A stretch of DNA of 38,013 nt from NCBI GenBank assembly GCA_004347965.1, contig QNVF01000008.1:1-38013 (forward strand), read 5' to 3'. Each line of letters starts with the position of its first letter. The first letter of the stretch is position 1. Source of the stretch: Candidatus Nezhaarchaeota archaeon WYZ-LMO8 (lineage in GTDB: Archaea > Thermoproteota > Methanomethylicia > Nezhaarchaeales > WYZ-LMO8). Position numbers: made by a program. Positions 21,001 to 24,000 of this stretch are shown here, in pieces.

Positions 21001-24000
21001 ACATAATTCATGCATCTGACAGCAAGGAAAGTGCTGATAGGGAGATCAAGATTTTCTTTGATGAGGAGGAGCTGTGCAGCTACTCGAGAGCTGATGAGCT
21101 TTGGCTTTAAAGGCATTAGAGGTCTTCTAATCGACAAGTTAAAGAGCGTACTCTTCGGTTTTCATCACGCTAAACTATTTGAGAGGAGGTGTCATGTTGT
21201 GAGTAGCGTAGAGAGTAAGAGGATTAGGTCGCCAATACTTTGCGTACTGGGGCATGTTGACGTTGGGAAGACGCTTCTCCTAGACAAGATTAGAGGTACT
21301 GCAACGATGTTTAGGGAAGTTGGGGCCATGATGCAGCGCTCTTCAGGGGGCGCTGCATGGTAGACCCAACACATTGGAGCTTCTTTCCTGCCTTGGTCTG
21401 CTCTTGAGAAGATATGTGGTCCATTACTTAAGAGTATAAGTGTTGAGATTAAGATACCTGGCTTCTTGGTCATTGATACTCCAGGTCATGAGGTCTTCGT
21501 TAACTTGAGGAGGAGAGGAGGCTCGATAGCTGACATGGCTATTCTGGTTATAGACATCCTTGAAGGGTTTGAGGAGATAACTTATGAGTGTTTGGAGATC
21601 CTGAAGGCTAGGAAGACCCCATTTGTGGTTGCTGCAAACAAGATAGATAAGATACCTGGATGGGTTGAGAACGAGTTTAAGCCTTTCATTGAGACAATAA
21701 AGCTGCAGCCTCCTCACGTTCAAAAGAGGCTTGATGAGCTCGTCTACAACATAGTTGCTAAGTTTGAAGAGTTGGGATTCCAAGCTGATAGATATGATAG
21801 GATAAGGGACTTCACGAGGACTGTAGCTATAATACCTACCAGCGCTAAGACTGGAGAGGGCATACCAGATCTTTTACTTGTCTTAGCTGGCTTATCTCAA
21901 AGATACATGTTAAAGAGGCTCTACGTTGAGGAATCAACGGCTAAGGGGGTAGTGCTTGAGTGCAGGGAGCTACCAGGCTTGGGTACGGTAGCTGACGTGA
22001 TAATCTACGATGGCATATTAAGAAAGGATGACACGATAGTGCTTGGCGGGCTCAAGGATCCCATAGTTACTAAGATCAGAAGCTTACTAATGCCTAAGCC
22101 AATGGATGAGATGAGGGATCCTGAGGATAAGTTCAAGAGCATTGATGAAGTTACGGCAGCTGCTGGTGTGAGGATTGTAGCTCATGGGCTTGATGAAGCC
22201 GTAGCTGGAAGCCCCCTATTTTCAGCGAGAAGTCAAGCTGAGATAGAGATGGCCATAAAGCAGGTATTTGAGGAGATGGCGAAGATCAGGATAACAACAG
22301 ACATCACTGGAGTTGTAGTCAAAGCTGACACACTAGGTTCTCTTGAAGCGCTGGTGCTAAAACTGCAGGAGCATGGCGTTCCGGTAAGGCTTGCTGATGT
22401 AGGTAAGATATCTAAGAGGGATGTGGTGGAAGCCTCCATAACGAGGGAGAAGAACCCGCACTATGGTGTGATTTTGGCGTTCAATGTAGGCATAAACCCT
22501 GATGCCGAACAGGAAGTAGAAAGTAGGGGTATACCGGTCTTCAGGAGCAACGTCATCTACAGGCTGATAGATGAGTACTTAGAATGGACCAAGAAGAGGA
22601 TGGAGGAGGAACGTAGACAGACTCTATCCTCCCTAATACTGCCAGGTAAAGCGCAGATACTAAAGGGCTACGTCTTCAGGAGGAGCGACCCAGCAATAGT
22701 TGGAGTCGAAATATTGACTGGAAGGTTGAGACCAGGATATCCATTAATGAACTCTAAAGGTAGGAGACTCGGTGTGATAATGCAGATACAGGAGCAGAAG
22801 AAGAGTTTAAGTGAGGCTGTAGCTAGACAAGCTGTTGCAATATCGATTAAGGGTGACGTGATAATAGGTAGGCAAGTCGATGAAGGAGATTACATCTACG
22901 TTGACGTACCCCCGGAGCACGTAAGGATATTGAAGGAGAAGTTCTTGGATCAATTATCGAAGGAAGAGCTTGAGCTCCTCGATGAAATAGTTAAAATGAG
23001 AAAAGCTGCTGGTAGATACTAGTCGTGCTCGACGACCTCAAAGTTTTTAGCTAAGTCGTAGAGTGTGTTCATGCTAAGGGGTGAAAGTAACGCCCGAGTT
23101 TAAAGTGGTTGTATCTGATCCATCAACTGGAAAAGCTCAGCAAGTAACTGTTAGCGGACCACAAGCAAATGCATTGATAGGTCTCAGGATAGGAGACGAG
23201 GTGGACGGTGCATTGATTGGAGTGCCCGGAGTAAGGCTTGTAATTAAAGGAGGAAGTGATAGAAGCGGAGCTCCTATGAGAGCTGATCTTCCAGGTCCTG
23301 TAAAGCGAAGATTACTGCTAAGTCAGGGTCCAGGATTTAGGCCAACGAGAAAGGGTTTGAGGAAGAGGAAGCTTGTCAGAGGAAACACGGTATCTGAGGA
23401 CATAGTTCAGATTAACATGGTTATAAAGCGTGAGGAGGTTAAGCATGGCTGAAGAGTGGATGAAGAGACAAGCTGAACTTAACATCGGTACAACGGGTCA
23501 CGTAGATCACGGGAAGACGACCTTGACTTGGGCTCTATCTGGAGTATGGGCTTCGAGACACTCTGAGGAGCTAAGGAGAGGGATAACTATTAAGCTGGGT
23601 TATGCAGATACAATCGTGTTGAAGTGCCCTAAGTGCCCACCTCCACAATGCTACACAACTTATGCCCTATCAGGAAGTACATGTAAGCATTGTGGATCTA
23701 AACTAGAGTTTGTTAGGAAGTACTCATTCGTAGACTGCCCTGGACACGAGATTGCACGCCCATAGCGGGCGTGCAACGTGATATGCTAATGGCTACAATG
23801 CTTGCAGGAGCAACGATGTTCGATGGCGCCATACTGGTAATAGATGCTACGGTTCCATGCCCTCAACCTCAAACGCGAGAGCACTTAAAGGCTCTTGAGA
23901 TAATGGACGTGAAGAACGTAGTAGTAGTGCAGAACAAGATTGAGGTTGTCCCGAAGGAGAAGGTTATAGAGAACTATCGTCAAATAAGGGAGTTTCTAAA

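Follow-up and report, generated by a model that had tools for sequence, protein, structure and literature searches.

Eight protein-coding genes in the genome of Candidatus Nezhaarchaeota archaeon WYZ-LMO8 are interrupted by nine short inserts that are very probably bulge-helix-bulge (BHB) introns of pre-mRNAs, with cutting by the endonuclease EndA and joining by the ligase RtcB as the predicted enzymatic steps. What is new is the presence of nine such introns in eight genes of one genome, including those for two translation initiation GTPases and a ribosomal protein, one intron having been seen spliced. The window analysed here, a stretch of 38,013 nucleotides, carries two of the inserts, in the genes for aIF5B and aIF2-gamma. 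The core claim of the survey's finding, namely that tRNA-type BHB introns reside in mRNAs, held in independent tests, which drew on homologues lacking the intron, on covariation, on a single spliced RNA contig and on the presence of an (alpha-beta)-type EndA and of RtcB. Its description of all eight genes as essential goes beyond what is shown in the case of hypD and of the MtnA/eIF2B-like gene.

Position and structure of the inserts

The cut rule applied throughout comprises an exon 4-mer, a 3-nt bulge, an inner hairpin, a complementary 4-mer and another 3-nt bulge, with cuts after the second nucleotide of each bulge. Both window inserts lie exactly where they had been reported, and each contains a stop in the upstream frame. 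Their parts, and those of the genes around them, are the following:

21010..21330, + strand: aIF5B exon 1, an open frame ending in ..REVGAM, with the P-loop GHVDVGKT inside
21319..21324, + strand: aIF5B outer helix, 5' strand, pairing with 21365-21370; six consecutive pairs, also in the MFE fold
21325..21328, + strand: aIF5B central 4-bp helix, exon strand GCCA, pairing with intron 21358-21361 (TGGT); covaries across families
21329-21331, + strand: aIF5B 5' bulge, cut after 21330
21331..21363, + strand: aIF5B BHB intron, 33 nt, with an in-frame TAG at its end
21332..21357, + strand: aIF5B inner hairpin, 11 bp (21332-21342 with 21347-21357), loop 21343-21346
21362..21364, + strand: aIF5B 3' bulge AGA, cut after 21363
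21364..23022, + strand: aIF5B exon 2, 552 codons plus stop, beginning TQHIGA; Pfam GTP_EFTU, GTP_EFTU_D2, IF-2 and GTP_EFTU_D4
23430..23750, + strand: aIF2-gamma exon 1, an open frame from a GTG, ending in ..DCPGHE
23745..23748, + strand: aIF2-gamma central helix, exon strand CACG, pairing with intron 23777-23780 (CGTG)
23749-23751 (5') and 23781-23783 (3'), + strand: aIF2-gamma bulges; the BHB is the MFE structure
23751..23782, + strand: aIF2-gamma BHB intron, 32 nt, which shifts the frame; in-frame TAG in the loop
23752..23776, + strand: aIF2-gamma inner hairpin, 10 bp (23752-23761 with 23767-23776), loop 23762-23766
23783..24733, + strand: aIF2-gamma exon 2, 316 codons plus stop, beginning MLMATML; Pfam GTP_EFTU 85-187, GTP_EFTU_D2 and eIF2_C

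Both inserts interrupt the GTPase domain: the downstream aIF5B piece enters the Pfam GTP_EFTU profile at position 60, and the two aIF2-gamma pieces share one GTP_EFTU profile, the first ending at position 80 and the second resuming at 85. The true start of aIF5B is probably the GTG at 21199, about 44 codons before the intron, because 44 plus 552 aa fits the frames of 590-610 aa found in intron-less relatives. Neither gene has a second intact copy in the genome, in which aIF5B gives one match and the other match to aIF2-gamma is only 35% identical. When the folds are considered, the strong outer helix of aIF5B (6 bp) corresponds to the strict BHB form; its MFE fold (-34.0 kcal/mol, z -6.1) has a middle register unlike the BHB, the exact BHB register being 5.1 kcal/mol less stable. 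The aIF2-gamma MFE fold consists of exactly the central helix, the bulge and the inner helix (-23.0 kcal/mol, z -4.3, with 0 of 200 shuffles as good), and its outer helix is nearly absent, with one pair followed by a mismatch, as in the relaxed motif.

The seven other inserts were found on other contigs at the positions claimed for them, and the gene names agree with Pfam:

C72:142-170, + strand: uS5 intron, 29 nt
C78:29519-29537, + strand: pyrG (CTP synthase) intron 1, 19 nt
C78:29571-29601, + strand: pyrG intron 2, 31 nt
C78:23842-23858, - strand: purA (adenylosuccinate synthetase) intron, 17 nt
C11:16109-16130, - strand: hypD intron, 22 nt
C35:6124-6150, + strand: intron of the mtnA-like gene (MtnA/eIF2B-like, an IF-2B-family isomerase), 27 nt
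C1:76635-76656, - strand: cbf5 intron, 22 nt

Only pyrG carries two introns, which flank an exon of 10 codons. All four central pairs form at eight of the nine sites (three of four in pyrG intron 2), against 0-1 of nine in slid registers, and among 1,655 other frame-restoring cut pairs lying at most 12 nt from the nine sites a single unclaimed pair fits the rule. An inner helix of 3-11 bp is present at all nine sites, and the outer helix at the seven sites outside the window has 0-3 pairs, which is again the relaxed form.

Rfam 15 covariance models gave no match at E up to 1 on either strand of 21000-24800. A loose-motif scan of the genome returned about 290,000 matches, those fusing ORFs numbering 6,411 in the true geometry and 6,472-6,565 in slid ones (five geometries). 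A strict scan, which demanded an A at the 3' bulge, an in-frame stop, coding potential and a compact hairpin, and which is blind by design to pyrG (10-codon exon; 3/4 helix), left 53 candidates against 33-61 in decoys; seven of the nine known sites were regained, with no other convincing one. A motif-only scan found 576 hairpins with a 3-nt 5' bulge, compared with 468-536 for bulges of 1, 2, 4, 5 and 6 nt, and, apart from the known sites, no long-ORF joins among the matches listed. The genome scans thus establish neither nine as the full count nor any additional intron.

Junctions, pairing and stops in relatives

Where relatives lack an intron, the two exons meet precisely at the splice sites predicted here, in 129 of 129 cases; exact closure means a gap of 0 nt, of 3 nt for a split codon, or of 36 nt for the pyrG stretch. 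At the aIF5B site the insert is present in 21 of the 30 relatives' loci, and the nine intron-less loci close with a 0-nt gap; the aIF2-gamma insert occurs in all 10 loci of family f1 and is missing from all 20 other loci, which also close with a 0-nt gap. At one locus, L160, the gap of -21 is an alignment artefact, and the end of the flank there resembles the 3' end of the intron.

The pairing that defines the motif is kept even as its sequence changes. Cuts were placed by protein homology in 121 intron instances, of which 112 keep the 4-bp helix, compared with 0-21 of 121 in slid registers; of the nine instances in which homology places the cut without all four pairs, three regain the fit when it is moved by 1 nt. 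The exon and intron 4-mers covary at aIF5B (GCCA:TGGY, GAAA:TTTC, GGGA:TCCT) and at uS5 (ACAG:CTGT, ACGG:CCGT). The inner hairpin sequence is distinct in almost every genome, yet still paired: for instance, no two of the 21 relatives with an insert at the aIF5B site share its inner sequence, the median paired length being 7 bp, and compensatory changes are found in the inner hairpin of aIF2-gamma at locus L039. The lengths of the inserts differ within each site (22-33 nt in aIF5B) and are not multiples of 3, and the inserts are therefore not translated; an in-frame stop is present in 91 of 101. Apparent second introns with stops inside, in the cbf5, purA and hypD genes of relatives, were rejected, as they are natural C-terminal stops through which the aligner had read.

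Spliced RNA, putative processing enzymes and competing explanations

The spliced aIF2-gamma RNA contig was reproduced from metatranscriptome X14 (525 nt, depth 35.2). In it a single A separates 23749 from 23783, which gives the synonymous GAA for GAG; apart from this, the contig shows 0 differences from the window in 291 nt upstream and 4 in 210 nt downstream. The comparison with RNA covered the two window sites and used assembled contigs rather than raw reads; splicing was seen at aIF2-gamma only, that is, for one of the nine introns. The unspliced aIF5B contig was likewise reproduced, being the sole RNA contig over that site (188 nt, depth 3.2), and may represent pre-mRNA or DNA in the library. 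The X14 run lacks cover over stretches of both window genes. DNA contigs of two runs over the aIF2-gamma site, X11 and X12, retain the insert.

The joined contig could instead come, as DNA or as RNA, from an intron-less strain or allele, the insert-bearing genes themselves being left unspliced. A single assembled contig is at issue, metatranscriptomes can contain DNA, the contig departs from the window in its GAA at the junction and in four other letters, and aIF5B is represented by an unspliced RNA contig. However, the joined contig is so nearly identical that it belongs to the same species or genus, and the insert is present in all 7 genomes of the genus and all 10 of the family; no joined form was found in the three DNA runs compared, and the depth of 35 exceeds the 3-7 of neighbouring pieces. 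Covariation and exact BHB geometry would also be left unexplained, and this origin is considered very improbable.

That the genes are pseudogenes, or are translated as two separate pieces as in the split genes of Nanoarchaeum, would agree with the two ORFs given by gene callers and with the start of some downstream pieces at or near a possible start codon (the ATG of aIF2-gamma exon 2). Yet between 9 and 21 of the 30 relatives, depending on the gene, retain the same interruption, both flanks are strongly conserved as protein (77-93% identity within the family), the breaks sit inside single folded domains and motifs of genes with no second copy, the insert sequences change while their pairing stays, and spliced aIF2-gamma RNA was seen, all of which makes this explanation extremely improbable. 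Equally improbable is a translational hop or programmed frameshift by which the ribosome would skip the insert in unspliced RNA, as suggested by a hairpin and a stop codon directly after the break, like those of phage T4 gene 60. The defining feature of the T4 gene 60 bypass is a pair of matching take-off and landing codons around the skipped stretch, whereas no matching codons occur here: aIF5B has ATG before the gap and none before the ACC, and aIF2-gamma has GAG before the gap and none before the ATG. The inserts, moreover, are 17-35 nt long, fall into all three length classes and are excised to the base by the BHB rule; an RNA contig without the insert exists, the covariation between exon and intron 4-mers suits the substrate of an enzyme that acts on RNA, and Rfam gave no match.

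As regards splicing by EndA and RtcB, the genome encodes two members of the EndA family (PF01974, contigs C12 and C2) and one RtcB (PF01139, contig C10). The C12 protein resembles the catalytic chains 3P1Z_B, 3AJV_B and 2ZYZ_B (E 1e-49 to 7e-43). Its C2 paralogue carries Ala in place of the catalytic His, and its match to the structural chains 3P1Z_A and 3AJV_A is weak. Judged by these similarities, the endonuclease is of the two-subunit (alpha-beta) kind, with a catalytic-like and a structural-like paralogue, a kind that is reported as able to cut non-canonical introns (PMC5829648). The tRNA genes of this archaeon are intron-rich, aragorn reporting introns in 16 of 40, although some of these calls are spurious, and the cut rule, when applied to them, joined same-anticodon tRNAs at the canonical 37/38 for Asn-GTT, Val-GAC, Leu-CAA and Leu-TAA. 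Only these four are informative: under a strict filter the calibration failed, with 3 of 14, and under a relaxed filter the crude "any tRNA" count came to 11, 10 and 9 of 14 and did not tell the registers apart. Removal of the inserts by some other activity, for which one may point to the sequence-based assignment of EndA and to the weak outer helix of several relaxed motifs, is the least probable explanation, as the inserts are far below self-splicing size, the same rule restores the archaeon's own tRNAs, and non-canonical introns are within the reported reach of two-subunit EndA.

In the proposed EndA/RtcB route, both window inserts would be transcribed within the aIF5B and aIF2-gamma pre-mRNAs, where the last exon 4-mer before the 5' cut would pair with an intron 4-mer close to the 3' end. 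The central helix so formed would lie between the two 3-nt bulges and stack on the hairpin of the intron itself. A heteromeric endonuclease, composed of the catalytic C12 EndA and the structural C2 paralogue, would cut after the second base of each bulge, and RtcB would ligate the exons, restoring the G2 (TQHIGA) and G3 (DCPGHE/MLMATML) regions. Translation of unspliced message would end at the in-frame stop of the intron, whose near-universal presence suggests a fail-safe. The same route would serve the seven further introns in six other genes.

Known systems and intron history

In the textbook view, archaeal mRNAs are unspliced. A BHB intron in cbf5 pre-mRNA was reportedly described in Watanabe 2002 and Yoshinari 2006, non-canonical and multiple tRNA introns, with their proliferation in Thermoproteales, in Sugahara 2008, and tRNA intron transposition in Fujishima 2010. 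The splicing of HAC1/XBP1 combines a protein-only endonuclease with RtcB-type ligation and removes a small structured intron, whereby the frame is changed. According to a 2023 JBC review, two archaeal genes are spliced by the tRNA endonuclease, one of them inside its coding sequence, and more probably remain (PMC10485636). The survey's contention that many such introns occur in one lineage and are unpublished was supported by the homologue tests and by literature searches: in the open literature, BHB introns of protein genes were found only in cbf5 and in a Haloferax 5' UTR, while bioRxiv supplements and subscription papers (Watanabe 2002, Yoshinari 2006 and the Brugger 2006 chapter) lay outside the scope and may hold predictions of further introns in protein genes.

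Among the closest known systems is the cbf5 intron that Yokobori 2009 (PMC2738675) describes from Desulfurococcales and Sulfolobales. It, too, is a short BHB intron in a coding sequence, sits in a highly conserved motif and has a BHB of the relaxed form; the EndA of its host is hetero-oligomeric, and its gains and losses are specific to lineages. The cbf5 intron itself is also present in this genome, but the hosts aIF5B, aIF2-gamma, uS5, CTP synthase (twice), adenylosuccinate synthetase, HypD and the IF-2B-family isomerase are new, as are the number per genome (nine instead of one), the occurrence in Nezhaarchaeales and the presence of two introns around a 10-codon exon. The Haloferax volcanii HVO_1309 intron was likewise shown, by circular-RNA sequencing and in vitro cleavage (PMC7714728), to be cut from an mRNA by the archaeal splicing endonuclease; it differs in that it measures 46 nt, lies in an untranslated leader where no reading frame is broken, and comes from a host with a homodimeric EndA. 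With the tRNA introns of Thermoproteota the present introns share the motif, the cut rule and, as predicted, the enzymes; they differ in that the host is a message, in which splicing has to preserve the frame and to compete with translation, and in that they carry in-frame stops. Finally, the unconventional splicing of HAC1/XBP1 mRNA in eukaryotes, performed by IRE1 and RtcB (PMC13149111), also relies on a protein-only nuclease and RtcB-type joining of an mRNA whose frame is changed by excision, but it involves another nuclease and another motif, and acts as a regulated stress switch at one mRNA rather than as a constitutive need at many housekeeping genes.

If such introns are general, gene callers and completeness estimators would misread core markers of many uncultured archaea as broken; a prokaryote would become available for work on the gain, loss and sliding of protein-gene introns, whose presence or absence is a clear character; the order of splicing relative to coupled transcription-translation would come into question; and the pairing of exon and intron words would offer a testable model of insertion sites.

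Intron history was reconstructed by parsimony on a five-protein tree. The survey had held that most introns were gained within one family, which needs to be modified: the introns of aIF2-gamma, pyrG (both) and mtnA each require one change, on the stem of family f1, before its diversification and not within it. The uS5 intron is common to f1 and its sister family f3, those of purA and hypD are missing from sister families and recur in distant ones, and those of cbf5 and aIF5B are older. As the same aIF5B site is occupied in at least nine families of the phylum, of which four lie outside the class, and as its exon and intron words covary, its intron is not a family-level gain.

It is conceivable, if rather doubtful, that uncultured Thermoproteota harbour BHB mini-introns as mobile, selfish elements, which insert into the best-conserved motifs of core genes and can use a site only if a 4-base word of the exon is able to pair with the 4-base word of the intron. 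The aIF5B site would then have been filled before the classes diverged, or hit repeatedly, and the conserved in-frame stop would tie translation factors, a ribosomal protein and nucleotide synthesis to the tRNA-splicing machinery. Were this so, it would amount to a second, protein-enzyme-based regime of archaeal mRNA splicing, missed since gene callers report broken genes. The pyrG pair would represent a fresh duplication; its two introns are 52 nt apart, both in an ACCCAT|AY context, and have similar ends.

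Inserts in the window and RNA across them

The genome (1.35 Mb in 78 contigs, 43.5% G+C, 93% complete, with the window as contig C77) had been credited by the survey with nine introns of the bulge-helix-bulge (BHB) type, the motif cut by the archaeal tRNA-splicing endonuclease EndA, in eight protein genes. Two of them lie in the window:

21331-21363, 33-nt insert in the aIF5B gene, between the open frames ..REVGAM and TQHIGA
23751-23782, 32-nt insert in the aIF2-gamma gene, between ..DCPGHE and MLMATML

In each gene the two pieces share one GTPase profile, and the names follow from Pfam (GTP_EFTU, IF-2 and GTP_EFTU_D4 for aIF5B; GTP_EFTU and eIF2_C for aIF2-gamma). 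The seven inserts claimed outside the window were all found in place, flanked according to Pfam by uS5, CTP synthase (pyrG), adenylosuccinate synthetase (purA), HypD, an IF-2B-family protein (mtnA) and Cbf5; both pieces of CTP synthase and of the IF-2B-family protein match Pfam, adjoining on the same profile, and for uS5, adenylosuccinate synthetase and HypD the upstream piece has no Pfam match. The two genes of the window are adjacent on the same strand, about 0.4-1.2 kb apart, here (21010-24733, with a 123-aa ORF between them at 23081-23452) and in relatives of several families (loci L004-L063; for instance, 549180-550817 and 547459-548397 in genome G016).

The stretch is contained in 15 public sequencing runs from eight studies, one of which is a metatranscriptome, and RNA and DNA were compared through assembled contigs, not reads. 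The spliced aIF2-gamma message previously reported is indeed present: a metatranscriptome contig of 525 nt (depth 35.2) consists of 23459-23749, one A and 23783-23992, with GAA for GAG at the joint and otherwise 0 differences upstream and 4 downstream. The insert is retained in DNA contigs of two other runs, and the spliced joint is absent from each of the three DNA runs compared. Derivation of the RNA contig from an intron-less strain is unlikely, given its ~99% identity to the window and the presence of the insert in 7/7 genomes of the genus. Bypass of the insert by the ribosome would leave the insert-free RNA unexplained, and matching take-off and landing codons are absent at the window sites. 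Rfam gave no match. As had been noted, a single RNA contig, of 188 nt at depth 3.2, spans the aIF5B site, and it is unspliced.

In the open literature, with subscription papers and preprint supplements outside the scope, no paper was found on introns in Nezhaarchaeota, nor on aIF5B together with introns and the BHB motif. The survey's view that the prior record is limited to cbf5 and one Haloferax mRNA agrees with the relevant passage of PMC10485636 (2023), which counts cbf5 and HVO_1309; a passage of PMC7714728 places the HVO_1309 intron in the 5' UTR. For mRNA introns, the corresponding part of PMC12397907 (2025) cites the three cbf5 papers alone, and a passage of PMC2738675 refers to unconfirmed introns predicted in further protein genes (a rudivirus; a 2006 book chapter).

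Predicted splice sites, motif geometry and candidate splicing enzymes

The cuts, originally placed by the motif, were placed again by homology in 30 loci for each of the eight genes, from 40 relatives. In each locus two codons were located by alignment, the counterparts of the last one in exon 1 and the first one in exon 2, and the DNA separating them was measured. At the predicted splice sites, 129/129 intron-less loci close exactly, the intervening length being 0 nt, 3 nt (a split codon) or, in pyrG, a stretch of 36 nt. All nine sites follow one plan, namely 4 exon bases, a 3-nt bulge, the intron hairpin, 4 bases that complement those of the exon, and a further 3-nt bulge, both bulges being cut after the second base. 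The claimed central helix is fully paired (4/4) at eight of the nine sites and 3/4 paired in pyrG intron 2; slid registers, in which the same geometry is offset from the predicted cut as a decoy, give 0-1/9. Of the other cut pairs that restore the frame, 1,655 in all up to 12 nt from the nine sites, a single unclaimed one fits the motif. The aIF5B motif is strict, with an outer helix of 6 bp and an inner helix of 11 bp; its region folds strongly (-34.0 kcal/mol, z -6.1), the exact BHB register being 5.1 kcal/mol less stable than the minimum-energy fold in the nearest-neighbour model. The aIF2-gamma motif is relaxed, with almost no outer helix and an inner helix of 10 bp, and its minimum-energy fold is the BHB itself (-23.0 kcal/mol, z -4.3).

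For the genome's Asn-GTT, Val-GAC, Leu-CAA and Leu-TAA genes, the cut rule gives a tRNA of unchanged anticodon joined at the canonical position 37/38; a cruder tRNA count did not separate the registers. Aragorn reports introns in 16/40 tRNA genes, some of them clearly artefacts (introns of 875 and 963 nt, and one that runs around a contig end). In several tRNA introns the last bases ahead of the 3' exon are ..GAA, and the 3' bulge opens in A, as in most of the mRNA introns.

The genome encodes two EndA-family proteins and one RtcB, the ligase that would join the exons. The EndA on contig C12 matches the tRNA-splicing endonuclease chains of 3P1Z, 3AJV and 2ZYZ (E 1e-49 to 7e-43) and retains the His- and Lys-bearing motifs. 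The protein on C2 is divergent: Ala takes the place of the catalytic His, and its matches to the partner chains in 3P1Z and 3AJV are weak. These PDB entries are Aeropyrum and Pyrobaculum heterotetramers. Judged from sequence, the pair has the pattern of a two-subunit EndA.

Whole-genome motif scans with decoy geometries, of limited sensitivity and high background, recovered 7/9 known sites and no further convincing case. The strongest inverted repeat encountered, an A/T-rich hairpin of 58 nt with a perfect stem of 23 bp (C34:3778-3835), is unrelated to the introns.

Conserved pairing and in-frame stops

With cuts set by protein homology, the central helix is fully paired in 112/121 intron instances of relatives, and three further purA instances fit with a 1-nt shift; slid registers reach 0-21/121. 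Nearly every inner hairpin differs in sequence (21 distinct among 21 in aIF5B) and keeps its pairing. Exon and intron words covary in uS5 (ACAG:CTGT, ACGG:CCGT) and in aIF5B (GCCA:TGGY in the class, GAAA:TTTC in families f34 and f32, GGGA:TCCT in f43 and f23). Conservation, covariation and the single-copy state do not fit a reading of the inserts as marks of pseudogenes or split genes.

Insert lengths vary at a given site (22-33 nt in aIF5B, 31-35 nt in aIF2-gamma) and in many cases cannot be divided by three. In 91/101 inserts (pyrG excluded) the frame of the upstream exon runs into a stop codon, against 27 and 14 for the other two frames, and the same is true of 10/10 pyrG loci; in relatives the stop often lies in the hairpin loop or 3' bulge. 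The relatives are not independent samples, but their inserts differ in length and in loop. Variable lengths and frequent in-frame stops together suggest that early termination has been selected for when a message is unspliced.

Distribution and history of the introns

Inserts in 30 loci per gene, intron-less loci closing exactly, and fewest changes on the tree (f1, the genome's own family, within Nezhaarchaeales; f2-f8, other families)
aIF5B: 21/30 (f1 10/10, f2 1/1, f3 4/4, f5 6/8, f6 0/2, f7 0/4, f8 0/1); 9 closing; 2 changes
aIF2-gamma: 10/30 (f1 only); 20 closing; 1 change
uS5: 14/30 (f1 and f3); 16 closing; 2 changes
pyrG, both introns: 10/30 (all 10 f1 genomes, 0/20 others); 20 closing; 1 change
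purA: 13/30 (f1 and three f5 genomes); 17 closing; 2 changes
hypD: 13/30 (f1 9/9, f4 1/4, f7 2/3, f8 1/1); 17 closing; 4 changes
mtnA: 9/30 (f1 only); 21 closing; 1 change
cbf5: 21/30 (f5 0/9); 9 closing; 1 change

On a FastTree phylogeny of five concatenated proteins from 31 genomes (G024 and G034, with fewer than three of the five, left out), f1 forms a single clade with support 100, sister to f3+f2. The introns had been described as mostly gained within one family; accumulation in f1 stands, but the aIF5B insert also occurs outside the class. In a phylum sample of 251 genomes, aIF5B junctions were inspected in 12 genomes with short open frames and two with long ones. The same site is occupied in 11/12 of the former, always with 4/4 central pairs, including G154 (f34), G104 (f32), G213 (f43) and G062 (f23) outside the class; among these 14 junctions the insert is absent in G087 and both long-frame controls. 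Since families beyond the class are occupied at the same site, the aIF5B intron of the window is old or recurrent at phylum scale.

The two pyrG introns (C78:29519-29601, L065), 52 nt apart, enclose an exon of 10 codons. Their exon context is the same (ACCCAT|AY) and their ends are alike (AGGC... ...GCCGGGYAW), suggesting that one was derived from the other. Compared with the f1 position (L130-L139, phase 1), the purA intron of f5 (L145, L150, L155) is shifted 1 nt downstream, to phase 2, which may reflect either intron sliding or independent gain at the P-loop codons. In intron-bearing aIF5B genes the exon words GGGGCCATG and ACCCA are almost invariant at synonymous sites (21319-21330 in the window). 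The intron-less loci L032 and L033, of family f5, retain the exon context of intron-bearing aIF5B genes, and this unchanged context fits a precise loss of the intron there.
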